13,947 nt of DNA, from positions 1 to 13,947 of the forward strand of contig WFSA01000009.1 of the NCBI GenBank assembly GCA_015486215.1. Direction: 5' to 3'. Made by a program: the position numbers and the translations under genes. The notes beneath the pieces were generated by a model. The model saw nothing but the letters and a program-made list of their open reading frames with translations, made no database searches and was not told where the DNA came from. Origin of the DNA: Anaerolineae bacterium (GTDB lineage: Bacteria; Chloroflexota; Anaerolineae; Promineifilales; Promineifilaceae). Within the stretch, counting starts at the first letter, position 1, and each line of letters begins with the position of its first letter. Positions 1-13,947 of this stretch are shown here, piece by piece.

Positions 1-1
1 G

Positions 2-1339
2 ATCGTCGATGAGTACAGGATGGAATTGCCCGCCGACGGCGGCTACCAGATCGAAATCGGCCTCTATTTGGCGGAAACAGGGCAGCGGCTGCAAGTTATG
101 CAGGGCGGACAGGCGACGGATCTGATTTTGATTGAGAAAACTATGGTGGAAACGGCCGTTGCCACAACAACAAGCACCCCTTCCACGCATACGCTCTCCC
201 TGCCACTCATCTTGAATATGCCGACGGTCACGCCATCTCCCACCCCGTTACCGACCGTCACCCCGCTGCCGACCGCCACTCCCAAGCCCGCCTTTCCCGT
301 TTATGAGGGTGCGCCGCTCGATTACGGGCAGATGGGGATACAGATGCACATTCAGCAGACATCGCTGCCTCCTCTTTTTGATCATATCCGCCGCTTGGGC
401 GTTGGATGGGTGAAGACGCAAGTGTCATGGAAATTGTATCAGCCGTATGCCGATCAATACGCAGAGGAACGATTTGCCGAATTGGATGAATTTGTCCGTC
501 TGGCAGAGGAAGCGGGCGTAAACGTGATGCTGGGGGTCTCGAAAGCTCCTGAATGGAGCCGCCCGACAACAGAAATGGATGGTGCGCCGACGGATTACGC
601 GCTATTTAGCGACTTTATGGGGGTGTTGGCGACGCGCTATCAAGGGCGGGTGGCGGCGTATGAGCTATGGAATGAGGCGAATTTGCAACGGGAATGGAAT
701 GGTGCGCCGTTGGGCGGAGATGAAGCGGCACGATTGATGCGGGCGGGGGCGACGGCCGTTCGCCAGGCGGATCCATCGGCACTGCTTATCAGTGGTGCAC
801 CGGCGGTGACGGGGATCAATGATGGGGTGACGGCCGTTGACGACCGCGTGTTCATGCGCCAGCTATTAAACGCAGGCACAGCCACTTTTGTAGACGGAAT
901 CGGCGTGCATCCTTACGGCTGGGCAAACCCACCTGATACAGAAGTCGGCACGCCCTCGCCCGCCACCAGCCATAATAATCATCCCAGCTTTTTCTTCCGC
1001 CAAACGCTGGATGAGTACGCCGCTCTGCTGAATGAATTCGACACGCCGCGCCCGCTCTGGCCGACAGAGTTCGGCTGGGCGACGTTTGACGGTTTAAACG
1101 CGGAGCCGCCCGCAGGGGTGGAGTATATGAATCAGGTGGACGAGTGGCAGCAGGCGGTTTATACGATGCGGGCGTTTGAGATGGGGCAGGAACGGCCGTT
1201 CGTCGCGCCGATGATCTTATGGAATTTGAATTTTGGCGCATATTTAGGGACGGAGTATGCTGAAGCGGGATATGGATTGCTGCGCGGAAATGGATCGGAG
1301 CGGCCAGTTTATTTGACGATTGAAGATAGCAAACCGTAA
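2..1339 (+). CDS. Clan GH-A (GH5-like) glycoside hydrolase, 5'-truncated by the window edge. An upstream domain is followed by a Pro/Thr-rich linker (aa ~45-90) and then a TIM-barrel catalytic domain.
   Basis: The ORF is open from position 2 with no in-frame stop, so the gene continues upstream of the window. It contains LWNEANL, an NE(P)-type acid/base motif, and PTEFGWA, a TE.G nucleophile motif; both are typical of GH5/clan GH-A. PTVTPSPTPLPTVTPLPTATPKP is a typical inter-domain PT linker. The stop codon is at 1337-1339. Confidence 0.7.
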   Translation: MVDEYRMELPADGGYQIEIGLYLAETGQRLQVMQGGQATDLILIEKTMVETAVATTTSTPSTHTLSLPLILNMPTVTPSPTPLPTVTPLPTATPKPAFPVYEGAPLDYGQMGIQMHIQQTSLPPLFDHIRRLGVGWVKTQVSWKLYQPYADQYAEERFAELDEFVRLAEEAGVNVMLGVSKAPEWSRPTTEMDGAPTDYALFSDFMGVLATRYQGRVAAYELWNEANLQREWNGAPLGGDEAARLMRAGATAVRQADPSALLISGAPAVTGINDGVTAVDDRVFMRQLLNAGTATFVDGIGVHPYGWANPPDTEVGTPSPATSHNNHPSFFFRQTLDEYAALLNEFDTPRPLWPTEFGWATFDGLNAEPPAGVEYMNQVDEWQQAVYTMRAFEMGQERPFVAPMILWNLNFGAYLGTEYAEAGYGLLRGNGSERPVYLTIEDSKP

Positions 1340-1647
1340 GGCGGCTCTTGGTGATAAATCTGTCGCGGTGTCGGTAACACCCCTTACAGACAAGTTGATA
1401 GAACTGTGGGAGTCTTGATGATGGGAATGATAGCATGGTTCAAATTAGGGTGAATCATCTTTGCCTTTATTGCGCGATTGGGCGACCATAAAGGAATAAA
1501 TTATAGGGGCGCGGCCTTATGCCCGCCCCCAAAGTATAAAGATCATCTTGCGTAAAATGAGCCATGTCGAATTTAGTATGGAAGCATAACGCGGATGGCT
1601 TCGCACGCGGATTTAGCGGATAAACGCGGATTTCCTGCTTTGATCCA

Positions 1648-1864
1648 CACTTTATTTTACACGAGTATCATGTAACTTCTCAATATTTCGGGATGACTAC
1701 AACGGATGAAAGAAATAAACGGATAGAGCAGTCGAGAAAACATCCGTTCATTTTCATGATCCGCTGTAGTCATACTAAAAACAAAATAATGTCCCCGCTT
1801 TTTTGAGAAGATACAGTATCATTAGGAAAATTTGTCAAGTCTCCCCAGAATACTAAGGGAAGGT
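1648..1864 (+). mobile_element. Composite MITE-like locus (copy A). A 5'-truncated type-1 element is interrupted by a nested 143-bp type-2 element. It consists of type-1 spacer/right half 1648..1671 + 1815..1864, with the type-2 element at 1672..1814.
   Basis: 1648-1671 (CACTTTATTTTACACGAGTATCAT) and 1815-1858 (AGTATCATTAGGAAAATTTGTCAAGTCTCCCCAGAATACTAAGG) together reconstitute the spacer and right half of the 112-bp element seen intact at 3871..3982 and 8468..8579. The intervening 1672..1814 has its own TIRs, GTAACTTCTCAATA ... TTTTTTGAGAAGATAC. It is flanked by a direct duplication AGTATCAT at 1664-1671 and 1815-1822. Confidence 0.65.
1672..1814 (+). mobile_element. Type-2 MITE-like element (143 bp) nested inside copy A, with an 8-bp target-site duplication AGTATCAT.
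   Basis: The TIR GTAaCTTCTCAATA at 1672-1685 matches the reverse complement of TATTGAGAAGATAC-like end ...TTTTTTGAGAAGATAC at 1799-1814. This is the same TIR as the type-1 element. The flanking 8-bp direct repeats sit at 1664-1671 and 1815-1822. A homologous segment (TAATACTTCGGGGTGAGTACAAC...CCCCAGTTTTTTGAGAAGATAC) occurs at 13594..13709. Confidence 0.6.
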
Positions 1865-1886
1865 TCGTTTTTAACTTTGGACTTTC

Positions 1887-1919
1887 AGGTGACAGGCACT
1901 TGGCAAGTGCCTGTCACCT
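1887..1919. repeat. Perfect 33-bp palindrome (15-bp arms, 3-nt centre GGC): AGGTGACAGGCACTT-GGC-AAGTGCCTGTCACCT. This is copy 1 of 2.
   Basis: Arms 1887-1901 and 1905-1919 are exact reverse complements. The second copy at 4027..4059 is identical except that the centre is GCG. Both are preceded by TTTC and followed by TTG, and both lie between a MITE copy and the start of a + strand gene. Confidence 0.8.
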
Positions 1920-1927
1920 TGGCCACA

Positions 1928-1957
1928 GTTATTTACGAGTTTTCCCTAAGAAGATAC
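1928..1957 (+). mobile_element. Internally deleted relic of the type-1 MITE, keeping a spacer fragment plus a solo right TIR.
   Basis: TATTTACGAGT ... TAAGAAGATAC resembles TATTTTACACGAGTA ... TGAGAAGATAC of the intact element. This is weak, eye-read similarity. Confidence 0.3.
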
Positions 1958-1967
1958 GATTCGATAT

Positions 1968-2300
1968 ATGAGCAAAGATAACGATACGCACCAGCATGAT
2001 GCAGAAAAAATAACACCCTTCCTCGCCCCTGAAAATATGGAGTATGTGATTTGCCCTGAATGTTACGGCAAAATGGCGAAGGATGCGCTCGTCTGCCCTC
2101 ATTGCGGCGGCACTCTCTCTGATGGCGTTCCTCATGATGATGCGCCAAAAAACAAGATGATCCATTATGTATGGATGGCTTTGATCGGCTTGGGGGCAAT
2201 TGTCATTATCGCGGGGCTTCTTATCGGTTTTGCTGGGCCGAGCATGATTATCGGCGGAATTTTGTTGTTAGCGGCATCGCTCACGAAACGGTTCGCTTGA
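1968..2300 (+). CDS. Small membrane protein (110 aa) with an N-terminal zinc ribbon (CPECYG...CPHCGG) and two C-terminal transmembrane helices.
   Basis: The ORF has two CxxC pairs 17 residues apart, followed by the hydrophobic stretches MIHYVWMALIGLGAIVIIAGLLIGF and MIIGGILLLAASL. It lies downstream of the MITE plus palindrome leader. I see no obvious SD, so the start assignment is tentative. Confidence 0.55.
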   Translation: MSKDNDTHQHDAEKITPFLAPENMEYVICPECYGKMAKDALVCPHCGGTLSDGVPHDDAPKNKMIHYVWMALIGLGAIVIIAGLLIGFAGPSMIIGGILLLAASLTKRFA

Positions 2301-2331
2301 TAAAAGCAAGTATTGCTCGCTATGCGTGCAT

Positions 2332-2391
2332 AAAAAACGGCCGTTTTTACTTCTCAGCCAAGATAGCATTGGGCGACCCAGCGGGTCGCCC
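2332..2391. terminator. Two palindromes in the gap between the convergent genes 1968..2300(+) and 2415..3851(-). They are AAAAAACGGCCGTTTTT (2332-2348) and a GC-rich hairpin GGGCGACCC-AGC-GGGTCGCCC (2371-2391). Together they are a candidate bidirectional terminator.
   Basis: The 9-bp GC stem with a 3-nt loop lies 20 nt past the minus-strand gene stop. The A6-CGGCCG-T5 palindrome gives a U-tail on either strand. Neither is a textbook stem plus U-tract on its own. Confidence 0.35.
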
Positions 2392-2414
2392 CTACGGGGG
2401 GGGAATATGTCCAT

Positions 2415-3851
2415 TTATTTAACGATAATGGGCAGATAGACCTCTCTTGCTTCTATGAAAAAGTGAGCCGGGCGGCTCCACGCGCCGGAGATCGTGTCAG
2501 ATTTGGCACGAATCCACCACGCGTACTCCCCTTTTGGCAGAGCGGTGGAGACGGTGTAGGAGCAGTTCTGGGTTGCGTTTTCGCAATGGGCGGCAACGGC
2601 CGTTACTTCACTTTGCCCGTAATCGTGTCCCCAATTGTACGTGCCATCGGAATTGACGGCGTATAGTTGGAATTCGTATTGAACGGCCGTTGTGATCGCC
2701 TCCCATGTCACGGCAAACGAGTCGCCATCCTGGGAAATATGCTTGCTGGGCGTAATCAACACCGAAGCGGGAAGCTCATTATCGTAATCGTCACAATGAT
2801 CTTTACGAGGATTGCCGCCTATATCGCAAGGGTAATCGGATGATTGGCCGGGGATAGGGCGAGGGTCATCAGTGGAAATGAGATCGTTTAATGCTCCCAT
2901 CTCGATCTGCTGGTCGCTGCCATCGCCTAAAGCGATGAGTCTGCCGCTTTCGCTGCCGTTAAATGTGTAATCAGCCAACGCATCAATCAAACGGAAAACG
3001 CCGTAATCATCCATAGCATCGAATGTACCATACCCGCCGTTACCAGTGGCAATCACTCTATGATCGGCGGCGTAATCATACCCGTTCGCGCTGCTGGGGC
3101 GCAGGATGACATACTCTTTTGCGGTATCGGCGATCGTGCCTACGCTCTCAAATTGGTCAATATAGGTGCGATAGTCGGTGCCACAATCATTTTCATAGGT
3201 TTGTACGATCATTTTGACATCGGATGGGTAATCGGCCAGCATCACATCGGTGCTGTCAAAATCGATCCATGGAGCCGAAAAGAAGAGGAACGCATTTTCG
3301 CCGTCTGTGCCGCCAAATCCATACTCCCGTATCATCGTATAGCTGACTGAGGTGAGCAGCCCGCCGCCAGAGGAGTGTCCGATCAGGCCGAATTTATTTT
3401 TATCAATGCGTGTTGGATAGAGGTCGGCCGTCCGCGTGAACACATTGGCAAGCTGCGAGCCAATGGTGGCGGTATTTGTGGTGTATTCGTCACAAACGGC
3501 CGTGTACCCCTTGCTGACAAGAAAGTAGAGAAGCTCATCATAAGAAGCACAAGGCATGTTCCAGCCGACAGCAAAGAATAGTACCGGCGCAGGTGACATT
3601 TGGTCACTGGGATAGTAGATGGTGACAGTATTGCTATCACCATCAACATCCATCGAGAAGGTGCTGGTCATGGTATCATGGCTGCCCCAACTGCCATACC
3701 CTGCGGCAATCGGCGCGATTGGCCCCTGATGGGGCTGCCTCAACGATATTAAGGCGAAGGTAAGTAATGTTGTCCCCATAATGAGGGGGAGGATGAGGAT
3801 AAAAATAAGTTTGGGGAAAGATTTGGAAAAAGACATTGTTATAATTTTCAT
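2415..3851 (-). CDS. Secreted or membrane-anchored alpha/beta-hydrolase. It is a GxSxG serine esterase/lipase resembling the PETase, chlorophyllase and dienelactone-hydrolase families, with a C-terminal FN3-like beta-sandwich domain.
   Basis: The N-terminal hydrophobic signal/anchor is KLIFILILPLIMGTTLLTFALISL. The nucleophile elbow is GLIGHSSGGG. The C-terminal ~100 aa (FAVTWEAITTAVQYEFQLYAVNSDGTYNWG...YTVSTALPKGEYAWWIRAKSD) resembles a fibronectin-III-type domain. The 478-aa ORF has no competing frame. Confidence 0.75.
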   Translation of the reverse strand: MKIITMSFSKSFPKLIFILILPLIMGTTLLTFALISLRQPHQGPIAPIAAGYGSWGSHDTMTSTFSMDVDGDSNTVTIYYPSDQMSPAPVLFFAVGWNMPCASYDELLYFLVSKGYTAVCDEYTTNTATIGSQLANVFTRTADLYPTRIDKNKFGLIGHSSGGGLLTSVSYTMIREYGFGGTDGENAFLFFSAPWIDFDSTDVMLADYPSDVKMIVQTYENDCGTDYRTYIDQFESVGTIADTAKEYVILRPSSANGYDYAADHRVIATGNGGYGTFDAMDDYGVFRLIDALADYTFNGSESGRLIALGDGSDQQIEMGALNDLISTDDPRPIPGQSSDYPCDIGGNPRKDHCDDYDNELPASVLITPSKHISQDGDSFAVTWEAITTAVQYEFQLYAVNSDGTYNWGHDYGQSEVTAVAAHCENATQNCSYTVSTALPKGEYAWWIRAKSDTISGAWSRPAHFFIEAREVYLPIIVK

Positions 3852-3870
3852 AGGATATTTAGTATCTTCT

Positions 3871-3982
3871 GTATCTTCTCAATAAATCGTGGACAAGACT
3901 TGACAAATTTCATCAGCACTTTATTTTACATGAGTACCATTAAGAAAATTTGTCAAGTCTCCCCCGAATACTGAGAAGATAC
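3871..3982 (+). mobile_element. Intact 112-bp type-1 MITE-like element (copy B) in the divergent promoter region between the hydrolase gene (-) and the sensor kinase gene (+).
   Basis: The TIR GTATCTTCTCAATA at 3871-3884 pairs with TATTCGG...TACTGAGAAGATAC ending at 3982. The internal 14-bp inverted repeat is GACTTGACAAATTT (3897-3910) and AAATTTGTCAAGTC (3946-3959), separated by a 35-bp spacer. A tandem partial duplicate GTATCTTCT sits immediately 5' at 3862-3870. It is the same element as 8468..8579 and 13503..13596. Confidence 0.75.
3900..3927 (+). promoter_or_regulatory. Sigma70-like promoter module inside MITE copy B. It is TTGACA-N16-TATTTT and reads toward the sensor kinase gene.
   Basis: A perfect -35 TTGACA at 3900-3905 is followed by a 16-nt spacer and TATTTT at 3922-3927, which keeps the conserved T1, A2 and T6 positions. 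The same module is present in copies C and D. In every copy it points at the adjacent gene. Confidence 0.35.
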
Positions 3983-4026
3983 CCTAATTTCGATAAAATA
4001 GATCAAATAAAGCTACAGGGGTTTTC

Positions 4027-4059: not shown

Positions 4060-4080
4060 TGAATTATTCGTATACCCCCC

Positions 4081-4116
4081 TCTACAAACGGCCGTCTTCA
4101 TGCTACAATGCTCCCA
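4081..4116 (+). promoter_or_regulatory. Candidate extended -10 promoter (TGcTACAAT at 4101-4109). Its predicted transcription start falls on the A of the kinase ATG, giving a leaderless mRNA.
   Basis: TG-n-TACAAT ends 7 nt before ATG 4116. The -35 region 4081-4086 (TCTACA) is weak. There is no SD before 4116. This is inference only. Confidence 0.25.
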
Positions 4117-6767
4117 TGATGCCCGCCCCCTATTTGAGCTATATTGATTTCAACCCCTACACATTCAACGCTGTCTCCCTATTTATCATCGGCTCACTCA
4201 GCGTTATCTATCTGCTGCGCCTCCAAAAGAAAACCGCCGCCTCGTGGTTCCTCATCACCAGCTTAGCCAGCTTCACGGCGGGCGTGATAGTCATGTTCTT
4301 CAGCGCCATCATCCTTTGGGGCGGTGTTTTGGATCTGTTCACGGACACCTTTGCCACCATCAGCATGGCCGCTCTGATCGGCTTTAACTACCATTATCCA
4401 CAACAAGTTACCTCCCGCGAGGCTGGTTTCGCACGTTTTTTTGCCGTCAGCATTAGCTTAACGGCCGTTATCATCAGCAGTTGGTATACGTGGCAAATTT
4501 ACAGAGTACATGCGTTTACAACGGCCGTTTCCCCCCTATTTTGGTTCCTGAATCCACTCATGTTTCTGGCCGCCCTGCTCGTCTCCATCCGCCGCGTCAT
4601 CATTATCGAACAACAAAAAACGGCAGCGGCAGGCTGGCATCATGCGTGGCTCGCCTTCTATCGGCCATCCCATCGTCAGGCGCGTTTATTGCGTAATTTC
4701 TCGTTAGCCTTATCGTTGGGATTGATACAAGGCATCGCCACTGGATTGAGCAGGACTGGACATATCTCGTCCCTGACGGCCGTTTACGCCATCAATCTCT
4801 CCCTGCTGCTGATGGTGGTTACCATCGTCTACGCCTCCTTTGAACTGACACAACAGCAGCCCGGTCTGATCATCCGTTTATTAGGACTTTCCCTGACGAC
4901 CTTATTACTGATTTTGGGCATTTTGGGCATATTTATGGTCAGTACCGCCATTGATTGGGTAAACATGCAAAACATCGCCTACACGAAAGTTGTGCAAAAA
5001 GTGGTTCGCGCTGACGAAACGGCCGCCTTGCCCGATGAAGTCGCCTACGTCGTCGCGTGGCCTAACGCGAAGACGGCGCAGTTGCTTTATGACAAACAGG
5101 GCACAATGGATATGCCATCCCTGATCGCCGAACAACAGCAAATAACGGCGAGAACGCTACCGCCCGCCGTCTGGATATCATTCATCCAGCCGCTCCTCCA
5201 CGCAGAAAACAGCACAACGGCCGTAAAATTCCGTTACGGATCAAACCCGCCCGGCTCTTGGCACCAATACGCCGCCTACACCTTTCGCCACGCTGGGATG
5301 GAGTACGAAGTCGGCTTCAAGTTGGCTGAGATGCGCCGCTTCCCCCGCGCCGTCAGCGTGGTTATGATTTGGGCGGTGATGTGCAGCACTCTCTTCATTC
5401 TCATCATTTTTCCGCTTTTTTTTAACGCTGATTTGATACGGCCATTAAACCGTTTGCTCGCTGGCGTGCAACAGGCGGATGACGGCGATCTAAACATCGC
5501 CATCCCTGTGGTACATGAAGATGAAGTCGGCTTTTTAACGGCCGCTTTCAACAAAATGGCCGCCTCATTACAAGATGAACTGACACAGCGACAACGCGCC
5601 CAAACAGAGTTACGCCATCTTGCCGATTCATTGGAGCGGCGCGTTGCCGCCCGTACCTACGAGTTGAGCGCATTATATGATGTTACCAAAGCGGCCAGCC
5701 AAGCACAAGATTTTCCCGCCTTGCTAACCGCCTCCCTCAACAGTGCCATCCGCGCCCTCAGCAGCGACGCTGGGTTTATTATTCTGACAGATGAAGAAGG
5801 GGTATCGCCGCACGCCACCTACCATCTAGCCACCCATCAAGGGATCGGCGATTGGCTGCCCCTTATTCAAAAAACGATTACCAACGGCGACTTTCTAGAA
5901 ATCATCAACCAACAAGACAAAGAACCCGTCCTCATCGCCAATACGTCCGCAGACCTACGTGCCCCGCATTTCATGCAGCTTATGCCGACGACGCTCCTCA
6001 TCGCGCCGTTATCGGCTGGAGAGCAGTTGTCGGGAGTGCTGATCGTCTACCGTGCTTTAGGACAAAGTTATAGCTTAAATGAGATTGCGCTGCTCATCTC
6101 AATCTCTGGACAACTGTCCATCGCCGCGCAAACAGACCGTCTGCGCCAACGCACCATCGTTTTGGAAGAGCGGCAGCGGCTCGCCCGCGACCTGCATGAT
6201 TCTGTCATCCAATCGCTTTATGGGCTGGCAACATTGACTGAAGTGGGAAAAATGCACGCCGCCGACGGAAATCTGGAGCCGATTGTGCCTATGTTCGCCA
6301 AAATCAGTAAGGCAGCACGGCAAGCGATTCGGGAAATGCGGCTGTTTATCCATCAATTGCGCCCGATGATTTTGGAACAGGAAGGGTTAGCCGACGCGCT
6401 GGAACTGCGGCTAACGGCCGTCGAAGGGCGTTCAGATGTGCAAGTGCGCCTGCAAGCCGATCCCGACCTGCGCCTGCCGCTGCCACTGGAAACCGCGCTC
6501 TATCAAATCGCGCAGGAAGCCCTCAACAACATTTTGCGTCACGCCCACGCGGAAACGATCATTATCACGCTGCACGGGCAAAACGGCCGTTTCATCCTAG
6601 AAATCCAAGACGACGGGCGCGGATTCGACCCGAATAAGGTTGACAACGGCCGTTTAGGGTTGAACAATATGCGGGCACGGGCGAAAGAGATTGGAGCTGA
6701 GTTTGCCATCACCTCCGCGCTCGGCATCGGAACCAAGATAAATATTGTGGTACATTATGACCCATAA
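4116..6767 (+). CDS. Sensor histidine kinase of the NarL-partner (HisKA_3) class. The N-terminal region has ~10 transmembrane helices and a ~130-aa extracytoplasmic loop, followed by HAMP, coiled-coil, GAF, HisKA_3 and HATPase_c domains.
   Basis: The H-box is ERQRLARDLHDSVIQSLYGL (HisKA_3 type). HAMP-like RPLNRLLAGVQQADDGDLNIAIP...GFLTAAFNKMAASLQDEL is present. A GAF-like segment (ALYDVTKAAS...GVLIVYRALGQ) follows. The ATPase has the N box QIAQEALNNILRHA and the G boxes DDGRGFD and GLGLNNMRARA. I prefer ATG 4116/4119 over the listed 4029, which lies inside the 33-bp palindrome. The stop codon at 6765-6767 overlaps the downstream regulator start. Confidence 0.85.
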   Translation: MMPAPYLSYIDFNPYTFNAVSLFIIGSLSVIYLLRLQKKTAASWFLITSLASFTAGVIVMFFSAIILWGGVLDLFTDTFATISMAALIGFNYHYPQQVTSREAGFARFFAVSISLTAVIISSWYTWQIYRVHAFTTAVSPLFWFLNPLMFLAALLVSIRRVIIIEQQKTAAAGWHHAWLAFYRPSHRQARLLRNFSLALSLGLIQGIATGLSRTGHISSLTAVYAINLSLLLMVVTIVYASFELTQQQPGLIIRLLGLSLTTLLLILGILGIFMVSTAIDWVNMQNIAYTKVVQKVVRADETAALPDEVAYVVAWPNAKTAQLLYDKQGTMDMPSLIAEQQQITARTLPPAVWISFIQPLLHAENSTTAVKFRYGSNPPGSWHQYAAYTFRHAGMEYEVGFKLAEMRRFPRAVSVVMIWAVMCSTLFILIIFPLFFNADLIRPLNRLLAGVQQADDGDLNIAIPVVHEDEVGFLTAAFNKMAASLQDELTQRQRAQTELRHLADSLERRVAARTYELSALYDVTKAASQAQDFPALLTASLNSAIRALSSDAGFIILTDEEGVSPHATYHLATHQGIGDWLPLIQKTITNGDFLEIINQQDKEPVLIANTSADLRAPHFMQLMPTTLLIAPLSAGEQLSGVLIVYRALGQSYSLNEIALLISISGQLSIAAQTDRLRQRTIVLEERQRLARDLHDSVIQSLYGLATLTEVGKMHAADGNLEPIVPMFAKISKAARQAIREMRLFIHQLRPMILEQEGLADALELRLTAVEGRSDVQVRLQADPDLRLPLPLETALYQIAQEALNNILRHAHAETIIITLHGQNGRFILEIQDDGRGFDPNKVDNGRLGLNNMRARAKEIGAEFAITSALGIGTKINIVVHYDP

Positions 6768-7434
6768 AACAGTCCCCTCCCCCTCCCCCACGCTGCGTAT
6801 TTTAATCGCTGACGACCACGCCATCGTCCGCGAAGGGCTGGAAGCGGTGATCGCCACCCAGCCAGATATGGCATTGGTGGGAACGGCCGTAAACGGAGTA
6901 GAAGCCGTCTCTCTAGCCGCACAGCTAAATCCCGACATGATCCTGATGGATTTGATGATGCCCCAGTTGGACGGATTAGCCGCTATTCAACAAATAACAA
7001 CCGCCAATCCAGCCGCCCGCATCCTCGTTCTCACCAGCTTCGCCGACGATGAACGGCTCTTTCCGGCCATCAAAGCGGGCGCGATGGGGTATCTGCTCAA
7101 AGACACCCTGCCCGCCGACCTGCTGCAAGCGATCCGCAATGTCGCTCAGGGAGAAACGTCCCTGCACCCGACCATCGCCCGCCGCATAATTCAAGAAATC
7201 CAACAGCCAGCCGCAAAAACGGCCGTTCCCGACCCCCTGACCGCCCGCGAAATGGAAACACTGCGCCTCATCGCTCGCGGCCTCACCAATAGGGAAATCG
7301 CCGCCGCGCTCACCATTCACCCCAAAACCGTCGCCAAATACGTCAGCACCATCCTGCAAAAACGGCACTTAGCCAACCGCACCCAAGCCGCCCTCTACGC
7401 ACTACGCGAAGGATTAGCCAGTTTAGACGAGTAA
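6757..7434 (+). CDS. NarL/FixJ-family response regulator with a REC receiver domain and a LuxR-type HTH.
   Basis: RILIADDHAIVREGL...MILMDLMMPQLDGL has the acidic pair and the phospho-acceptor Asp. LTAREMETLRLIARGLTNREIAAALTIHPKTVAKYVSTILQK is a LuxR/GerE HTH. ATG 6757 (MTHKTV...) overlaps the kinase stop, suggesting translational coupling. The alternative in-frame ATG 6745 gives MWYIMTHK. Confidence 0.85.
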   Translation: MTHKTVPSPSPTLRILIADDHAIVREGLEAVIATQPDMALVGTAVNGVEAVSLAAQLNPDMILMDLMMPQLDGLAAIQQITTANPAARILVLTSFADDERLFPAIKAGAMGYLLKDTLPADLLQAIRNVAQGETSLHPTIARRIIQEIQQPAAKTAVPDPLTAREMETLRLIARGLTNREIAAALTIHPKTVAKYVSTILQKRHLANRTQAALYALREGLASLDE

Positions 7435-7553: not shown

Positions 7554-7653
7554 TCCATCGGGTATCGCCCCTTGTTACCATATAATGCATCCATTTATCG
7601 TACGGCAAAGTATGTGGGCAACGGCCGTAGTATCATTACAAGGAGCAGTAAGA

Positions 7654-8457: not shown

Positions 8458-8467
8458 AAAATATGCC

Positions 8468-8579: not shown

Positions 8580-8646
8580 AATACGCCCATTAAAAAATTC
8601 GGGACTCGTTTCCCTCTAGCTCTAGCTATCAATAAAGGAGAAAACC

Positions 8647-10053
8647 ATGACTACAAGAAAAACTGTCTATATTTTTATATTTACCCTTCTTGCACTATCT
8701 ATCGCCGCTTGTAAATCAGAACAAGAAACGGACGATACGGCCGTTGCCGTTTCAGTTGCCCTGACACAAACAGCAGTTGTGCCGACAGCAGCAACGGCCG
8801 TTGCCCCAACCGTCGCCCCAGCCATAATTTCAGTTGAGCCGACAGAGCCGACAAAGCCGACAGAAGAAACGGCCGTGCCGACAGAAGCAGCCGAATCCCC
8901 AGCCGAAGAACTCGGTTTCATCACTGGCAGGGCGCATTTAATGGCTCCGCCAACACCTTCTTTAACCATCTACGCCGTCAATATCGCAACTGGCGAATGG
9001 GTTTCTGTAGACACGGCCGAAGCGGATGGCGAAGCTGCCTATACGCTGGAACTACCGTCAGGCTCCTATCATGTATTTGCTTCCTACGGCTTGGGCTACT
9101 CATCTGACAATAAAGGGTTAACTCCTGTCGTTGTCAACGCAGGGCAAACAACAACAGATATTACACTCTCTCCCCCTTCCCCATCCGATTGCGGCCCGAT
9201 GTTCGGCATTCCCGCCTCTCCAGATGGAGCGTATGCGGAAATTCCCGGCCCCTCAGAAGAATGTTCGTCATCTTCCGCCGCCCCAGCCCCAGCCGAAACC
9301 GAAGCAACGCGCATCCAATTCGCGCCCGGAGATGATTCTGCCCAGATTTTTGGCGACATCCTCCCTCATGGAGTTGACCATTACCTGATAAGCGCAGCGG
9401 CCGGGCAGGAAATGACAGTGAATGTTGATGTATTTGAAGACAACCCGATAACCCTCGCTATCGCAGGCGCAGATGGAACAATCCTCAATCAATACGATAC
9501 AGATACCACCACATGGACGGGCATACTTCCCTCTACACAAGAGTATTACATTGATATTCTCTCCAGATACGATCAAACGAGTATTGATTATGCGTTGGTA
9601 GTAATGATTCGCACGGTAGAAGAGACGAATAGCAGCTATCAGCCGCCCTCTCCATCAATCTGTCAAATTATTCAAGAGACAGCAAACGAGGCTGTCCCAG
9701 CCACCTTTACGCTGGAGTCCAGCGCACCTTTTATAGACCCCTCATCTGGAGAATCAGGGCTGGGATGCAGCTTGACGACAACTGGGAACGGGGTTGATTT
9801 TTCCAGCCCTAACGATGTAATAACCAGCTTGGTACACGCCTTTATCGGATGGGAGGAACAAGCGGCATATCAGGCGGATGGGCCGACTGGATCGGCAACG
9901 GGAATGACCCGCGATATGGGCTTGCTGTTAATTAACGCAGAGTGGGAAGCGGCACCAGAAGTACAATGTCCCTCAGATCAACCCATATCAGCTTGCAGCA
10001 TCAATCCAGAACAAAAACTATACACCATTCATATACAAGTCGCGCAAAAGTAA
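8647..10053 (+). CDS. Lipoprotein with a Pro/Thr/Ala-rich linker, a CarboxypepD_reg-like beta-sandwich domain and a PPC (pre-peptidase C-terminal)-like domain. Its function is unknown.
   Basis: AAGGAG lies 8 nt upstream of ATG 8647. The signal peptide carries a lipobox (LLALSIAAC, Cys22). The linker is low-complexity PT/A-rich (VAPTVAPAIISVEPTEPTKPTEE). ITGRAHLM...IYAVNIATGEWVSVDTAEADGEAAYTLELPSGSYHVF resembles a carboxypeptidase regulatory-like fold. ATRIQFAPGDDSAQIFGDILPHGVDHYLISAAAGQEMTVNV...YYIDILS resembles a PPC domain. Confidence 0.8.
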   Translation: MTTRKTVYIFIFTLLALSIAACKSEQETDDTAVAVSVALTQTAVVPTAATAVAPTVAPAIISVEPTEPTKPTEETAVPTEAAESPAEELGFITGRAHLMAPPTPSLTIYAVNIATGEWVSVDTAEADGEAAYTLELPSGSYHVFASYGLGYSSDNKGLTPVVVNAGQTTTDITLSPPSPSDCGPMFGIPASPDGAYAEIPGPSEECSSSSAAPAPAETEATRIQFAPGDDSAQIFGDILPHGVDHYLISAAAGQEMTVNVDVFEDNPITLAIAGADGTILNQYDTDTTTWTGILPSTQEYYIDILSRYDQTSIDYALVVMIRTVEETNSSYQPPSPSICQIIQETANEAVPATFTLESSAPFIDPSSGESGLGCSLTTTGNGVDFSSPNDVITSLVHAFIGWEEQAAYQADGPTGSATGMTRDMGLLLINAEWEAAPEVQCPSDQPISACSINPEQKLYTIHIQVAQK

Positions 10054-10115
10054 AGAGCGGCAACAGGACGATTACACTCTCGTCTTTTACAGAAAATTGA
10101 GTTGATCTTGTTTTG

Positions 10116-10176
10116 AAATTGGACACTGATCACACTGATTTCACTGATTTTTATCTGTGCAATCAGTGTCCAATTT
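10116..10176. promoter_or_regulatory. 15-bp inverted repeat (AAATTGGACACTGAT / ATCAGTGTCCAATTT) enclosing three direct CACTGAT repeats at 9-bp spacing. It is iteron-like and possibly a terminator.
   Basis: The arms are at 10116-10130 and 10162-10176. CACTGAT occurs at 10124, 10133 and 10142, with a reverse-complement copy ATCAGTG at 10162-10168. It sits 63 bp after the lipoprotein stop and ~85 bp before the receiver ORF. The RNA stem would end in AAUUU/UUUUG. Confidence 0.45.
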
Positions 10177-10184
10177 TGCAAGAG

Positions 10185-10226
10185 CTGGGTAAAAATACCC
10201 ACTCAAAACCCACTCATTCTCCCCTG
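10185..10226 (+). promoter_or_regulatory. Copy 2 of the GGGTA-N4-TACCC motif (GGGTAAAAATACCC at 10187-10200), 68 bp upstream of the ATG of the receiver ORF.
   Basis: See 7512..7553. A possible -10 TATATC lies at 10240-10245. Confidence 0.5.
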
Positions 10227-10260
10227 TCAAAGAGAGGTGTATATCTGCTAATTTTGTAGT

Positions 10261-10632
10261 ATGAACACAAAACAGATCACCATCCTCATTATCGCACCAG
10301 CAGGACGTATGGCCGACACGCTTTCTGTGTTATTGAAATCCAATACTCAGATCACGCTGCTCGGCCAAATTGCCGATCCAGATGTCGGCCTGCGTCTGAT
10401 TGTTGAACGCCAGCCCGATGCTGTGATCATAGACGCAAATTTACCCGACAATGCCGTTTGGCCGCTTTTATCACAATTAAAAACGGCCGTTCCCCACACC
10501 CGCCGCTTCGTTCTGATCCACTCATCCCAACAAAGAAAACAGGTCAAAACCACAGGTGCTGACACTATATCCGCATCTGAATGTAATGCTAAAAAATTGT
10601 TTTTAGGAATGGGAATTTTATCTTCTCAATGA
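10261..10632 (+). CDS. Atypical receiver (REC)-like single-domain protein, 123 aa. It may be a MITE-truncated response-regulator remnant or pseudo-receiver.
   Basis: ITILIIAPAGRMADTLSVLL...PDAVIIDANLPD has a REC-like fold signature and a conserved Asp at the DANLP position, but the N-terminal acidic pair (DD) is replaced by AP. The last 4 codons and the TGA (10618-10632) lie inside a decayed MITE TIR (TTATCTTCTCAATGA). I see no SD. Confidence 0.45.
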   Translation: MNTKQITILIIAPAGRMADTLSVLLKSNTQITLLGQIADPDVGLRLIVERQPDAVIIDANLPDNAVWPLLSQLKTAVPHTRRFVLIHSSQQRKQVKTTGADTISASECNAKKLFLGMGILSSQ

Positions 10633-10696
10633 AAGGGCAAAAGAGCTGATAGATTTCATCAAAGCCTCTCAATTTACACGAGTACCACAAAAAAAC
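10618..10696 (+). mobile_element. Decayed type-1 MITE relic (copy E), keeping the left TIR and part of the spacer.
   Basis: TATCTTCTCAAT...GATTTCATCA...CAATTTACACGAGTACCAC resembles GTATCTTCTCAAT...AATTTCATCA...TTATTTTACACGAGTATCAT of the intact element. The right half is missing and replaced by the 118-bp inverted-repeat element at 10697. Confidence 0.4.
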
Positions 10697-10814
10697 CTAG
10701 TTCTAGCGGATTTTGTTGCTGCCTGATTTGATGCCATTTTAAAGCAATACTCGCGTCATTTTTGGACGAAATTTACTATCAAAAACTATCAGCAACAAGA
10801 AACGCTAGAACCAG
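10697..10814. repeat. 118-bp element with ~25-bp imperfect terminal inverted repeats (CTAGTTCTAGCGGATTTTGTTGCTG / CAGCAACAAGAAACGCTAGAACCAG). It is a possible second MITE type inserted into the relic E spacer.
   Basis: The arms 10697-10721 and 10790-10814 are reverse complements at ~21 of 25 positions. The insertion point in relic E, just after CACGAGTA..CA, corresponds to the type-2 insertion point in copy A. Confidence 0.35.
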
Positions 10815-10985
10815 ATAAATTACTCCTTTATCAATACTGTTTTTGTACAGCGTACAAGGATATTATCCGCAGATTTCACAGATCGACGCAGATTAAAAAA
10901 GGTTAAAAATCTGCGCCAATCTGCGGATCGTTCTTCACCCAATTCCAAACACAGAATTGATCGGCTGGAAAACAGCCGTTCTCCT

Positions 10986-12770
10986 CTAGCTATCGCTCTT
11001 ACTCTTACTCATCTGCTCACGCAGAACCATCGCCAACAACCCATCCACCATCCCGTTCCCCCCGCCCTGTCCACTCTGGACAGCGATGTCAGGAATAATG
11101 CGGACATCCTGCTCGCCGATGATCTGCATGAGTTGAACGGCCGTATACCCATCACCCCCCAGCGCTTCCACGCCCACCCGGTACGCATCCGCCTGCGCCT
11201 GCCCCATGCTGCGAATCGCTTCCGATTCACCCATTGAGCGCAACTTGATCGCCTCAGCATCACCTTCCGCCTTCTTTACCGTAGAATGCGCTTCCAGTTC
11301 AGCGATTTGCACCCCTTTCTCAGAGCGCACCATCTCGTGCTGAATGTCAGCCATCGAAGTTGCCCGCACGAGCAATTGCCGCTGCTCTTGCGCCATCTGC
11401 TGCACCTCATACGTCTTACGCTCTTCCTCCGCGATCTTGCGGTCAGTTTGCGTAACCATCAGCTTTTCGGGCGGCGTAATGTCGCCGATCAGCGTGTCAA
11501 TCGCCTGCACATCATACGCGCTGATGGCGGTACGGATATGCGAAGCCGCTTCCGCTTGCCGCTCACTGCGTGCGCTCAAAAAGTCCAATACCGTGTATTC
11601 CTGCGCCGAGTTGCGGAAGTAGTTGCCGACAATCGGCTGCAACACATGGTCAACCAGATTTTGCACTGCACCCACGCGGGAAATCACCTTTGGCGCGTCG
11701 AGCGCACCGATATGGATGATTTGGGCGACATCCAGATTGAACGCAAAGCCATCTTGCGAACGCACCGTAATCGGGGCTAAACGGGTGTCGTATGAATGTT
11801 CTTCCGTCCGCCGCGCCCAGTTCAAGACAATATTGGTCGTCGGTACTAATTCAATTTTTAAGATGCGTGTGTTCAACGGATGCTTGCCCGGATAAAGCGG
11901 CGTAACCCACACCCCTTTGTGTCCCGGATCAACTAAATTGCCATGACGGAAGCCGGCCCCGCTCACGTCCTGATGCACTTTGCCGACGAAGGCGATGACG
12001 ATACCAACGTGACCAATCGGTATTTCAGTCATCCGTACTTGTTCCACATTAACAAACCACGGGTTCAGATTCCATGCGCCAGAGAGCAAAATCTGCTCTT
12101 GCAAGCCGCGACGGCCGTTGTTATTGAGGAACTTTTGCGGCTCTTGGAAATTCTCATGGTCAAAAACCGTCTGCCCCGCAATTTCGCCCTCATCAATAGG
12201 TGCGCCGTCTAAAGCGGTGATGATGCCAACCATGTCGGAGGCAATGGTATACACCTGCAACTGTTGCGGGGTCATGTGATATGATTCCGCATTGCTGGCG
12301 GTGATGACAGAAAACAAGGCGGTGTTAATGCGATAGATGCCAGCTGTCAGGATGTCCAATTGCCGCCCTTTTTCGCCGCCATTCAGCAGAAATTTTTCCG
12401 CATTCTGGAAGCTGTTGCATTCCACAACCTGTCCTAAAATACGGCTGGGAGGGGGCGTTCTGCCGTCAGCAGCCACAATAAGCCCAATCTGCCCTTGCGG
12501 AATGCGAATGACGGGTACTTTTTTCACCGAGAACCGCCACGGATGGAAGCCGAAGTGCCAGCCAGGAGACAAAGTTGCCGCCTGATAGCCAGCTTCCCCT
12601 TTCAGGGCAATATGCCTGCCCGCCGCCAACGCGGGGCCAAGCTTCTTAACGACGATGCCCACTTCCCGCTCACCAATGATCACCAATCCGAACAGGGATT
12701 TACTGAAGATAACAACGAATACTAAAATGATTAGGCCGACGAAAACGGCCGTTACTGCTATGTTAAACAT
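10986..12770 (-). CDS. Flotillin-like SPFH (band-7) domain membrane protein of the YqiK/FloT family, ~594 aa.
   Basis: The N-terminal TM is MFNIAVTAVFVGLIILVFVVIF. The SPFH core is GIVVKKLGP...IRIPQGQIGLIVAADG... and continues to ...FNLDVAQIIHIGALDAPKVI. The C-terminal region is Ala/Glu/Gln-rich coiled-coil (EAAS...QMAQEQRQLLVRA...ELEAHSTVKKAEGDAEAIKL). GGAG lies ~9 nt upstream of ATG 12770, so I prefer this start over the listed 12851. Confidence 0.8.
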   Translation of the reverse strand: MFNIAVTAVFVGLIILVFVVIFSKSLFGLVIIGEREVGIVVKKLGPALAAGRHIALKGEAGYQAATLSPGWHFGFHPWRFSVKKVPVIRIPQGQIGLIVAADGRTPPPSRILGQVVECNSFQNAEKFLLNGGEKGRQLDILTAGIYRINTALFSVITASNAESYHMTPQQLQVYTIASDMVGIITALDGAPIDEGEIAGQTVFDHENFQEPQKFLNNNGRRGLQEQILLSGAWNLNPWFVNVEQVRMTEIPIGHVGIVIAFVGKVHQDVSGAGFRHGNLVDPGHKGVWVTPLYPGKHPLNTRILKIELVPTTNIVLNWARRTEEHSYDTRLAPITVRSQDGFAFNLDVAQIIHIGALDAPKVISRVGAVQNLVDHVLQPIVGNYFRNSAQEYTVLDFLSARSERQAEAASHIRTAISAYDVQAIDTLIGDITPPEKLMVTQTDRKIAEEERKTYEVQQMAQEQRQLLVRATSMADIQHEMVRSEKGVQIAELEAHSTVKKAEGDAEAIKLRSMGESEAIRSMGQAQADAYRVGVEALGGDGYTAVQLMQIIGEQDVRIIPDIAVQSGQGGGNGMVDGLLAMVLREQMSKSKSDS

Positions 12771-12810
12771 AATTACTCCATATGAAAGATAACCTACTTC
12801 TAATCCCGCG

Positions 12811-13338
12811 CTATGAAAGCCTCGAGAACTGTTGTTGAATGCGTGTAACAATCATTCTTGCCTCAGCTTCTTCCACGCCGTCACCAAAGCGGTACGTTTT
12901 TGCCCCATAATCAAAAGTGATAGGGCCGTCCATCCTGTATATCATGCCTATAGAAGCACGTCCTCTACGCACTCGAGGTCTATCAACAACACGCAAATTC
13001 GATATGGACGCACAATCAAATGATCTCGTATGTCCGACACCCCATATCTGCCGCCGTATATGAAAAAGATCATAATCCACTTTGACAACCTCTTTCCCCA
13101 GCAGCATCCACAACAGTGACAGTATCGAAGAAAGGCCGACTAATCCCCATATCAATATAAACGGCCCGCCCTCAACCATTGTCGAAAACTCAAAAGTGAA
13201 GGCAAATGCCCAAAACATCAGCCATATTGGCAGAAACATCAATAATGACCACTCTTTACGGCTGGGTATGATAAATATTAGTTGATTGCCAAACTGCTCA
13301 ACATGATGTCGAGCAACTTCCGGCTGTATTACGGACAT
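12811..13338 (-). CDS. Small membrane protein (175 aa) with 2 TM helices and a C-terminal ~90-aa soluble domain. It is co-operonic and upstream of the flotillin gene and may be NfeD-like.
   Basis: GAGGAG lies ~9 nt upstream of ATG 13338. The hydrophobic segments are LLMFLPIWLMFWAFAFTF and FILIWGLVGLSSILSLLWMLL. It lies 40 bp upstream of the flotillin start. The NfeD assignment rests only on the known yuaF-floT / yqiJ-yqiK gene pairing. Confidence 0.6.
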   Translation of the reverse strand: MSVIQPEVARHHVEQFGNQLIFIIPSRKEWSLLMFLPIWLMFWAFAFTFEFSTMVEGGPFILIWGLVGLSSILSLLWMLLGKEVVKVDYDLFHIRRQIWGVGHTRSFDCASISNLRVVDRPRVRRGRASIGMIYRMDGPITFDYGAKTYRFGDGVEEAEARMIVTRIQQQFSRLS

Positions 13339-13502
13339 AAAAAAAACTCCTCTAGCTTACAGATCATATTCGTAGGCTTAACGAATATATTTGACTGTCA
13401 TTCCTGCCTTCGCTGAGCCCGCCCTCGTCGAGATGGGGGAATGACAAACCGTTAAGTTTACAACAATGCTTACAGATAGATGCACGAATAGAAGCCGCTT
13501 TG

Positions 13503-13709
13503 GTATCTTCTTAGTATTCTGGGGAGACTTGACAAATTTTCCTAATGATACTCGTATAAAATAAAGTGCTGATGAAATTTGTCAAGTCTTGTCCATAATA
13601 CTTCGGGGTGAGTACAACAAATCAAGAAAGGAATAAATTGCATCAGTCGAGTCAACCTGCTCTTTTCCAAATCTGCTGTACTCATGTCCCCAGTTTTTTG
13701 AGAAGATAC
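13503..13709 (-). mobile_element. Chimeric MITE-like element (copy D) in reverse orientation, flanked by a perfect 9-bp target-site duplication GCCGCTTTG. It is a type-1 body (13503-13596) fused to a type-2 3' portion (13597-13709).
   Basis: The left TIR is GTATCTTCTTAGTATT and the right end is TTTTTTGAGAAGATAC. The 9-bp direct repeats are at 13494-13502 and 13710-13718. The internal inverted repeat is GACTTGACAAATTT / AAATTTGTCAAGTC. The segment 13597-13709 matches the type-2 element 1690-1814 in the same way (AATACTTCGGGGTGAGTACAAC...CCCCAGTTTTTTGAGAAGATAC). Confidence 0.7.
13558..13585 (-). promoter_or_regulatory. TTGACA-N16-TATTTT promoter module of MITE copy D on the minus strand, reading toward the NfeD-like/flotillin operon.
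   Basis: On the minus strand, TTGACA is at 13585-13580 and TATTTT at 13563-13558. The predicted leader to ATG 13338 is ~210 nt and contains a 9-bp-stem hairpin (13396-13404 / 13438-13446). Confidence 0.3.
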
Positions 13710-13947
13710 GCCGCTTTGTCGTTAAGACAAAACGGCCGTTATCACGATCTCTATCCAGAGTGATATGGTTGCAGAATGGGGCTAACTGTATGCGAAGGTA
13801 CGCAGAACAGAACGGCAAAGCCGCCCAAGTCAGCAATATAGAACTCCTATTATAGGGAATACGGGGGGATGTGACAGTAACGGGTCACATCAAATAGGCA
13901 CTTTTGGTTTCATAACCAATCTATCCTCCACCGGGTCTTAGGGAAGG

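Follow-up and report, generated by a model that had tools for sequence, protein, structure and literature searches.

The window analyzed here, a 13,947-nt stretch of DNA from an Anaerolineae bacterium (assembly GCA_015486215.1, contig WFSA01000009.1, positions 1 to 13,947), is densely seeded with the 8-nt word ACGGCCGT, a highly iterated palindrome (HIP) of the type of the cyanobacterial HIP1 that saturates, at about 1.5–2 copies per kb, the DNA of a whole clade of Chloroflexota (Ardenticatenia at NCBI, including Promineifilales and genomes labeled Ardenticatenaceae). The HIP is a short word that stands by itself, and it is neither a mobile element nor an RNA nor a peptide motif. There are 27 copies in the window, compared to 0.24 ± 0.46 expected from 200 dinucleotide-preserving shuffles (largest count, 2), and the extended 10-mer AACGGCCGTT occurs 14 times, compared to 0.02 expected; an order-3 Markov model fitted to the window with the motif included predicts 1.25 and 0.14 copies, respectively. 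ACGGCCGT is the commonest 8-mer in the window, where each of the remaining palindromic 8-mers occurs at most once, and it encompasses all but 5 of the 32 instances of CGGCCG, 4 of these 5 being off by one outer base only.

An earlier note, made from the sequence of the window alone, had reported 26 copies of the 8-mer against a random expectation of about 0.2. The enrichment is real, and AACGGCCGTT is present at exactly the 14 sites implied there. The copy at 752 had been overlooked, however, and four of the coordinates have to be corrected (4776 for 4786, 5217 for 5237, 8737 for 8747, and 11137 for 11147), the remaining ones being accurate. The claim that all three reading frames and the spacers are used holds, but the usage is far from even: 20 of the 27 copies are read as ACG-GCC-GTn (Thr-Ala-Val), 3 as nAC-GGC-CGT and 2 as nnA-CGG-CCG-T, with 2 more located between genes, and the skew towards Thr-Ala-Val is independent of the gene strand. 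Copies in all frames and in spacers speak against a protein motif, as the note had argued; the observed-to-expected (O/E) ratio is far from 1, and the word is confined neither to one repeat family nor to one codon context.

The flotillin neighborhood was retrieved from 5 close relatives (81–95% protein identity) and from 80 species-representative genomes. Every count given here, for loci designated L001 and so on, rests on 1–22 kb and not on whole genomes, and gene calls in the pooled analyses are longest-open reading frame (ORF) approximations. The flotillin of the window has its closest homologs in Chloroflexota metagenome-assembled genomes (MAGs), and the named relatives are assigned at NCBI to Ardenticatenia, under Promineifilales or Ardenticatenaceae; the nearest relative, GCA_054008415.1, shows 95% protein identity and 93% nucleotide identity over 2.6 kb. 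Because, apart from flotillin and its upstream gene, the loci have no detectable nucleotide similarity to the window, largely independent genes are sampled. In the 15 independent loci of Chloroflexota relatives, ACGGCCGT is the top palindromic 8-mer, at 0.6–1.9 per kb (about 600–1940 per Mb), and in the window as well as in 14 of these 15 loci, it is the top 8-mer overall; in L002, a 2.8-kb duplicate contig that was not counted, it ties for the top. The O/E ratio is 146 in the five closest genomes, 63 in the eleven others, and 78 for the pooled set, in relatives whose flotillins are 65–95% identical to that of the window (the 16 ACGGCCGT loci and two loci with core variants). As a positive control, HIP1 (GCGATCGC) was found at 0.4–1.4 per kb in about 60 cyanobacterial loci, those from Nostoc included, with essentially no ACGGCCGT, such that ACGGCCGT is as dense in the relatives as HIP1 is in the Nostoc control loci. 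HIP1 proper is rejected as the identity of the Chloroflexota word, given that GCGATCGC occurs 0–1 times per Chloroflexota locus.

Beyond these loci, a pattern scan for two 10-mers close together picked 120 metagenome stretches, 69 of which (414 kb; GC content, 43–64%) carry the word at a density of at least 1 per kb, and 29 IMG/VR stretches, about 19 of which carry it at 1.2–3.7 per kb. The word is seen in-frame in conserved genes in many independent assemblies (NCBI, ENA, JGI, and Logan). It has so far been documented in 16 loci of 8–22 kb, in 69 contigs from metagenomes and in about 19 from IMG/VR, from which we infer on the order of 10^4 copies per genome. The equal density in the 15 independent loci and the 69 metagenome contigs bears out the suggestion of the earlier note that this is a HIP1-like, DNA-level phenomenon with a different core. 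Among the IMG/VR contigs, L111 and L087 show HIP densities of 2.7–3.7 per kb; L087 encodes FtsK/SpoIIIE, an SLT transglycosylase and ParA, and looks like a conjugative or plasmid-like element more than a phage, the IMG/VR label of 'viral' being putative.

The HIP genomes group into a single cluster in the flotillin tree, and the genome that carries the variant CCGGCCGG (see below) is placed near the base of the cluster; this is the tree of a single gene, possibly exchanged with cyanobacteria, and is only indicative. The window flotillin (10986–12851, minus strand) is 65–69% identical to the flotillins of Nostocales, and the cyanobacterial sequences nest among those of Chloroflexota in the tree, which suggests transfer of the flotillin gene between the phyla.

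The enriched unit in the clade is the full 8-mer: CGGCCG with one matching flank is 1.5–4-fold over-represented in most combinations, but it is no more frequent than expected when both flanks differ (O/E 0–1.7). Outside CGGCCG, A is preferred at position −1 (63–95%, depending on the genome) and at −2 (35–86%), the preference is weak at −3, and the background is reached thereafter. This loss of flank preference beyond 2–3 nt identifies a free-standing word of 8–12 nt as opposed to the core of a miniature inverted-repeat transposable element (MITE) or a repetitive extragenic palindrome (REP), and with flank conservation gone 1–2 bases outside CGGCCG, the view that the copies do not constitute a repeat family is upheld. 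The flanking bases are not the same in all lineages. In L016 (Ardenticatenaceae HK-STAS-CHLO-36), CCGGCCGG occurs 41 times in 21.8 kb and ACGGCCGT not once, and in L019, CGGCCG occurs 20 times in 5.8 kb with near-random flanks; hence, the lineages have the core in common and differ in the flanks. The palindrome extends to at least 10 nt in 71% of the non-coding copies compared to 46% of those in coding DNA, and the preferred site is probably (A)AACGGCCGTT(T). In 702 kb of HIP-clade DNA, CGGCCG is the only 6-mer palindrome clearly above expectation (O/E 3.17, the next one being at 1.19). The copies are spaced by 616 nt on average, with a coefficient of variation (CV) of 0.98 compared to 1.01 in simulations, so that regular spacing or periodicity on the scale of 0.1–5 kb is rejected; there is a mild deficit of gaps shorter than 50 nt (20 vs 34).

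The 16 pooled HIP loci (288.7 kb) contain 456 copies, with a higher density in non-coding DNA (2.02 per kb) than in coding DNA (1.50 per kb); the coding copies are distributed among the three frames as 209, 118, and 43, and 86 copies are non-coding. The effect on the encoded proteins is substantial. The tripeptide TAV has an O/E of 5.75 in the HIP loci compared to 1.07 in non-HIP Chloroflexota and 0.85 in cyanobacteria, and 209 of the 222 TAV tripeptides (94%) are encoded by ACG-GCC-GTN, compared to 13% predicted by codon usage; NGR and DGR exceed expectation 5.1-fold and 3.7-fold, respectively, in the same pooled loci. In a codon alignment of flotillin from 28 genomes, the recurrent orthologous HIP sites that were checked lie in ungapped columns, which indicates that copies are made by substitution and not by insertion. 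Some of this recruitment is synonymous, as in the Y-T-A-V-Q segment, which is encoded with ACG-GCC-GTT in eight HIP genomes and with ACC-GCC-GTC/GTG in non-HIP relatives, and some is nonsynonymous: KVPVT has become KTAVT in two genomes, LDG[A/Q]P has become LDGRP in six, and the nearly invariant IPQGQ has become IPAGQ in the CCGGCCGG genome. Thus, a DNA-level force reshapes protein sequences, overriding synonymous codon choice and changing amino acids, and the resulting distortion of protein composition (TAV, NGR, and DGR 4–6-fold up) matters for analyses of evolutionary rates and codon usage. REPs and MITEs are likewise present in many dispersed copies, some of them in hairpins after genes, but the HIP has no conserved sequence beyond 10–12 nt, is mostly in-frame inside genes and is gained by substitution; the flank, frame and ortholog data do not match an intergenic unit of tens of nucleotides gained by insertion, and identity with REP or MITE is rejected.

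Orthologous 8-mers were scored in all-against-all alignments of HIP-rich sequences, a comparison that the earlier note had called for. The HIP sites are kept far better than other 8-mers (39–98% vs 7–84%): 39% vs 7% at 65–72% nucleotide identity, 56% vs 13% at 72–80%, 94% vs 27% at 80–93%, and 98% vs 84% at 93–100%. The distribution of differences is bimodal, such that the orthologous counterpart of a HIP either matches it fully or differs from it by two to five changes; a counterpart that differs by one change (a one-off) is found in 1.8–3.7% of the cases, compared to 22–27% for control 8-mers. Among one-off words in the pooled HIP-clade DNA, those altered at outer positions have O/E ratios of 1.4–3.8, and those altered at core positions 0.5–1.7. 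We read this as evidence that near-cognate sites do not last long, since they are turned into the full word and then kept in that form; a ratchet-like drive predicts the same pattern. A low-GC restriction-modification island in L188 contains a single copy in about 3.4 kb, compared to about 1.4 per kb across the locus, which is consistent with accumulation of the word during residence. The expectation that an integrase-bearing island would lack the word is rejected for L004 (12.7–17.8 kb), where the density is normal; only the L188 island is depleted.

As the word is its own complement, any two neighboring copies form an inverted repeat. Just after the flotillin stop codon, HIP pairs 18–27 nt apart are found in L001 (11805–11831), L003 (11785–11811), L005 (11854–11888), and L011 (11805–11830), with different loops; three of these post-flotillin pairs were folded and form 15–18-bp hairpins with energies between −26.6 and −30.8 kcal/mol (z from −5.6 to −6.7); the hairpin in L001 is followed by a T-run. 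Other intergenic pairs that form strong terminator-like hairpins are located at 3820–3844 in L001 and 8462–8488 in L003, the spacing of the pairs being 17–27 nt overall. Closely spaced pairs involve 6 of the 86 non-coding copies compared to 10 of the 370 coding ones. The window itself contains no such HIP hairpin pair, and terminator-like sites are not more numerous in it than in shuffles. A single copy as a hairpin or terminator is rejected given that window positions 2322–2356, which span the extended copy at 2333–2348, fold at only −2.7 kcal/mol (z +0.66) and give no stable hairpin; the word in the window as an RNA family is rejected as well, with no Rfam match. Under the mechanism proposed below, copies that had become abundant would then have been co-opted, pairs 17–27 nt apart giving rise to terminator-like hairpins after genes.

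The HIP class is said to go back to Robinson, in 1995. HIP1 has been known for about thirty years without an agreed function or origin, its cognate methyltransferases being DmtA and DmtC. Because HIP1 is a single case in one phylum, its correlates (Dam/CGATCG methylases, OpcA, pili, and type IV machinery) are confounded with cyanobacterial phylogeny. The resemblance of the Chloroflexota word to HIP1 extends to every testable defining feature of the class, that is, abundance, dispersion, palindromic extension, one-off spectrum, a core that is not enriched alone, and orthologous conservation. Both are GC-rich, perfect 8-nt palindromes with nested 4- and 6-nt palindromes that occur in coding and non-coding DNA; the frequency and O/E of the Chloroflexota word (600–1940 per Mb, O/E 63–146) fall in the ranges for HIP1, about 0.3–2.7 per kb (300–2700 per Mb) and tens to hundreds, respectively (Elhai 2015, PMC4390886; Xu et al. 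2018, PMC5861425). Both are often extended to 10-nt palindromes in a lineage-specific manner, their one-offs deviate mainly at positions 1 and 8, and their 6-mer cores show no enrichment other than as part of the 8-mer (PMC4390886); also in common are persistence across a clade and conservation of orthologous sites above the background, the latter as given for HIP1 in Xu et al. 2018 (PMC5861425). The two words differ in the host phylum, in the flanks, which are A...T here and G...C in HIP1, and in the core, which is CGGCCG/GGCC here and not CGATCG/GATC, so that a Dam-type GATC methylase cannot be involved.

In some cyanobacteria, HIP1 is replaced at comparable frequency by another GC-rich palindrome (GGCGCC, GCsGC, rCCGGy, or TCGATCGA; PMC4390886), and variants of one core that differ in the outer bases are seen in both phyla, GCGATCGC/TCGATCGA in cyanobacteria and ACGGCCGT/CCGGCCGG here. 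These alternate HIPs are 5–6-mers that appear sporadically in single strains and not in clades (Elhai 2015, PMC4390886), whereas the Chloroflexota word is an 8–10-mer common to a deep clade; CGGCCG is absent from the words listed in the same paper. A full-text literature search, with most subscription journals outside its coverage, returned no paper on ACGGCCGT as an iterated word and none linking HIPs to Chloroflexota, Anaerolineae, or Ardenticatenia. Two further palindromes were encountered in the course of the counts. In L051 (Sphaerospermopsis aphanizomenoides BCCUSP55), ATTGCAAT, a word not mentioned in Elhai 2015 (PMC4390886), occurs 23 times in 20 kb compared to only 7 copies of HIP1, and may be another alternate iterated palindrome; in L026, a Caldilineaceae MAG, the leading 6-mer palindrome by raw count is GCCGGC, with 29 copies in 14.7 kb.

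How the word is made is less clear than its presence, and we tentatively favor, with a confidence that stops somewhat short of calling it probable, a site-directed molecular drive, most likely methyltransferase-linked biased repair. A near-cognate site one change away from the word would be quickly converted and then held; the putative machinery would consist of a resident sequence-specific DNA cytosine methyltransferase centered on the CGGCCG core and strand-biased mismatch repair, and the preference of each lineage for particular flanks (A...T in most, C...G in one, and none in another) would reflect the properties of the reader or of the enzyme. GGCC, CGGCCG, and ACGGCCGT are nested palindromes, a symmetry typical of the targets of restriction-modification systems (HaeIII and EagI sites). 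In the ratchet model of Elhai, mismatch repair is misdirected when a misincorporation during replication happens to create a site that can be methylated, and the new base is thereby retained (PMC4390886). A process of this type would operate on each position of the recognized word, and the all-or-none pattern observed is what it would produce. A methyltransferase-centered process is the most economical reading because of the nested symmetry, the pressures on GGCC and palindromes (see below) and the HIP1-like one-off spectrum. By analogy with HIP1, the earlier note had put forward a cognate methyltransferase or very-short-patch repair, or an uptake signal, as possible mechanisms.

Several observations weigh against this methyltransferase-linked drive, and it is on account of the lack of a cognate enzyme in the DNA scanned, the A...T flanks, the irregular spacing and a pattern of conservation that fits drive and selection alike that our confidence is limited. 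Motif scans for C5 motifs I, IV, and ENV and for the xPPx motif of N4/N6 enzymes, which covered all Chloroflexota loci, 29 IMG/VR and 120 metagenome stretches (about 1.1 Mb), detected neither a methyltransferase of the CGGCCG or GGCC type nor a Vsr-like gene, be it as a neighbor or elsewhere in the scanned DNA. The methyltransferases that were found, beside MvaI/BcnI- or BsuBI/PstI-family endonucleases, probably have other specificities. Variants with C-to-T changes are not distinctively depleted among the one-offs, with O/E ratios of 0.6 for ATGGCCGT, 0.9 for ACAGCCGT, and 1.1 for ACGACCGT, like other core variants. Very-short-patch repair of the Dcm/Vsr type (CCWGG in E. coli) is akin to the proposed mechanism in that the frequency of a methyltransferase target is raised by repair bias, but the word biases linked to it are much below the 100-fold 8-mer excess, its effect is far below 60–150-fold, and it concerns one position of a 5-mer as opposed to all eight positions held here. 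The spacing, random at a CV of 0.98 vs 1.01, lacks the evenness that a repair-signal function might favor, and very strong or direct selection would equally give high orthologous conservation. Finally, in the model of Elhai, the G...C flanks follow from a G-meC requirement (PMC4390886), and the A...T flanks found here are not explained by that model as written.

None of the methyltransferases encountered in the scans is credible as the cognate enzyme. The low-GC island of L188 (10143–12251; 45% GC vs 55%) encodes a C5 cytosine methyltransferase that aligns full-length with M.HaeIII (E 7e-35); the enzyme adjoins a BsuBI/PstI-family endonuclease and is taken to be of the CTGCAG type; an N4/N6 enzyme in L111 (8314–10738) adjoins an MvaI/BcnI-family endonuclease and an IS1595 transposase. 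The scans also returned a Dam-like enzyme, two further isolated candidates, in L095 and L129, and spurious matches.

Signs of pressure on GGCC and on palindromes in general are seen both within and outside the clade. Three non-HIP Chloroflexota loci, L018, L042, and L079, are nearly free of GGCC, with 1, 3, and 0 copies compared to 41–144 expected, and cluster together in the flotillin tree, apart from the HIP clade, suggesting an opposite pressure on the same tetranucleotide in the form of long-standing restriction of the HaeIII type. In the 702 kb of HIP-clade DNA, many palindromes are avoided (O/E 0.05 for GGGCCC, 0.12 for CCCGGG, 0.16 for GAGCTC, 0.17 for TTCGAA, and at most 0.27 for ten more), and in the 16-locus set, AGGCCT has an O/E of 0.07–0.2, which points to heavy restriction pressure in the clade. 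In 1.17 Mb of DNA from Nostocales and other cyanobacteria (about 60 loci among L020–L085), CGGCCG is about 7–8-fold under-represented (14 vs 92–116 expected) and GGCC about 3-fold (988 vs 2799).

An alternative that we consider unlikely, although it accommodates part of the data, is that the word is a signal for DNA uptake or recombination, analogous to the DNA uptake sequence (DUS) of Neisseria and the uptake signal sequence (USS) of Pasteurellaceae, whereby a competence or import receptor would recognize the word, molecular drive would spread it, and the flank variants would be dialects. The density of about 1–2 per kb resembles that of USS/DUS (about 1 per kb), and biased frame use, lineage-specific variants of one core, and inverted pairs that form terminator-like hairpins after genes, here relatively commoner in non-coding DNA, are also shared. 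Putative mobile elements or proviruses of the clade carry the word, at 1.2–3.7 per kb, and HIP1 has been tied to methylation-dependent transformation efficiency and to the DNA-uptake machinery in two preprints (bioRxiv 10.1101/2024.09.10.611283 and 10.64898/2026.06.24.733823). On the other hand, DUS and USS are asymmetric 9–12-mers with a demonstrated uptake receptor, whereas the Chloroflexota word is a perfect palindrome with nested 4-, 6-, and 8-mer symmetry; uptake drive leaves many one-offs, whereas here core one-offs are at or below the background and orthologous one-offs are nearly absent. Nor are we aware of any report that these Chloroflexota are naturally competent, which counts against an uptake signal.

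Direct selection, with each site binding an abundant dimeric nucleoid-associated or chromosome-organizing protein, as proposed for HIP1, or serving as a mark of self-DNA, appears less likely still. It would account for the conservation of orthologous sites, which is 1.2–5.6 times better than that of other 8-mers depending on divergence, for the persistence of the word through a deep clade, and for the fuller palindromes of non-coding copies, which suggest a symmetric recognition site of 10–12 bp; selection on HIP1 was argued for from orthologous conservation in Xu et al. 2018 (PMC5861425). With some 10^4 sites, however, the fitness effect of each would be minute, and yet conserved residues are overridden, which is easier to reconcile with a mechanistic drive; moreover, the spacing is random at 0.1–5 kb, and the flanks have changed wholesale in one lineage while the core stayed. 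To our knowledge, there is no candidate protein that binds the word, and this too counts against direct selection. An ordinary by-product, be it a Thr-Ala-Val motif, codon or oligonucleotide composition, a MITE or REP repeat, or an assembly artifact, is refuted: although T-A-V is encoded by 20 of the 25 coding copies in the window and the GC content is about 50% with CG-rich codons, 161 pooled copies are in the other two frames and 86 are non-coding, at higher density, shuffles and Markov models predict 0.2–6 copies where 27–456 are seen, TAV is not enriched in non-HIP relatives or cyanobacteria, the flanks are not conserved, and the word appears in many independent assemblies.

A bolder proposal, on which we would place only little weight, is that the word is the recognition site of a dedicated, 8–10-bp-specific system of filamentous Chloroflexota, either a palindromic signal for uptake or recombination of self-DNA or an orphan methyltransferase combined with a nicking 'reader' that directs mismatch repair. 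If so, words of the HIP type would have evolved convergently as a general device of bacteria and would not be a cyanobacterial curiosity, and the switch from ACGGCCGT to CCGGCCGG would mark a change of specificity in the responsible protein that could be found by genome comparison.

Whichever process is at work, the Chloroflexota word provides a natural replicate of HIP1 in that its sequence is an independent one, its statistical anatomy matches that of HIP1, it persists throughout a clade, and its flanks vary within that clade, so that an explanation of HIPs should hold in both systems and should differ among the ACGGCCGT, CCGGCCGG, and GGCC-free lineages of Chloroflexota. The question is tractable by comparative genomics combined with methylomes given that long-read metagenomes of these activated-sludge and sediment organisms exist. 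When contigs and mobile elements of the clade are to be binned, the word can serve as a sharp taxonomic marker, and it is also relevant to the design of DNA for transformation of Chloroflexota.

The genes of the window are ordinary, including those for a GH5 hydrolase, a HAMP-GAF-HisKA_3 kinase with a LuxR-type response regulator, a LamG-domain protein and flotillin, and several ORFs have no Pfam match. The GH5 ORF (20–1339, plus strand) contains four HIP copies, the 10-mer AACGGCCGTT at 151..160 (8-mer at 152–159, read as ACG-GCC-GTT, T-A-V), ACGGCCGT at 752..759 (the overlooked copy) and at 830..837, both in the T-A-V frame, and the 10-mer at 1191..1200, read as nnA-CGG-CCG-Tnn (R-P). Between the convergent ORFs 1968–2300 (plus) and 2415–3851 (minus), a copy (8-mer at 2337–2344) is embedded in the 16-nt palindrome AAAAACGGCCGTTTTT (2333..2348). 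ORF 2415–3851 contains 10-mers at 2595..2604 (T-A-V on the coding strand) and 2682..2691 and the 8-mer at 3496..3503, likewise in the T-A-V frame, as well as the one-off TCGGCCGT (3424..3431), in which the core CGGCCG is intact and an outer base is changed.

In the HAMP-GAF-histidine kinase ORF (4029–6767, plus), the 8-mer at 4088..4095 is in the R-P frame, the 10-mers at 4460..4469 and 4520..4529 and the 8-mers at 4776..4783, 5217..5224, and 6414..6421 are in the T-A-V frame, and the 10-mers at 6582..6591 (AAC-GGC-CGT) and 6645..6654 are in the N-G-R frame; the one-off ACGGCCGC, with an outer base changed, occurs at 5019..5026 and again at 5538..5545. The LuxR-type response regulator ORF (6745–7434, plus) contains the 8-mer at 6883..6890 and the 10-mer at 7218..7227, and the LamG-domain ORF (7585–8457, plus) contains the 8-mer at 7621..7628, all in the T-A-V frame, as are the 8-mers at 8737..8744 and 8869..8876 and the 10-mer at 8793..8802 in ORF 8647–10053 (plus). 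The latter ORF also includes the one-off ACGGCCGA, again with a changed outer base (9013..9020), and GCGGCCGG (9397..9404), where both flanks of CGGCCG are mismatched, a class that is not enriched in the clade. A 10-mer at 10482..10491 is in the T-A-V frame of the receiver-like ORF 10261–10632 (plus).

Three copies lie in the flotillin ORF. The 8-mer at 11137..11144 encodes part of the Y-T-A-V-Q segment, with ACG-GCC-GT[T/A] in 8 HIP genomes; that at 12111..12118 (N-G-R) has an orthologous 8-mer in 7 HIP genomes and the one-off ACGGCCGG in the eighth, L017; and the 10-mer at 12744..12753 (T-A-V), in the N-terminal hydrophobic segment, is common to the 5 closest genomes, with different residues in the others. 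The last copy, a 10-mer at 13731..13740, is intergenic, upstream of ORF 12811–13338 (minus), and is conserved in L001.

Other repeats are present in the window. A second, intergenic family of about 95–120 nt, without the HIP word and with 92–96% identity among the copies, is represented at 3864–3982, 8461–8579, and 13502–13595 (minus), with a partial copy at 1639–1857; each full copy contains a promoter-like TTGACA-16-TATTTT site and is located upstream of the kinase, ORF 8647 (plus) or ORF 13338 (minus). The window, this family included, has no match in Rfam, and an 81–85% match to the repeat is found in another HIP genome (L010, 3266–3360); the family may represent a MITE or else a promoter or leader cassette that is used in common. 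A near-perfect 33-nt hairpin palindrome, AGGTGACAGGCACTTGGCAAGTGCCTGTCACCT, occurs twice, at 1887–1919 and 4027–4059; because the second copy overlaps the mechanically called GTG start of the kinase ORF (4029), the true start is probably further downstream. A 48-nt direct repeat with 81% identity (7508–7555 and 10181–10228) immediately precedes the LamG ORF (7585) and the receiver-like ORF (10261).

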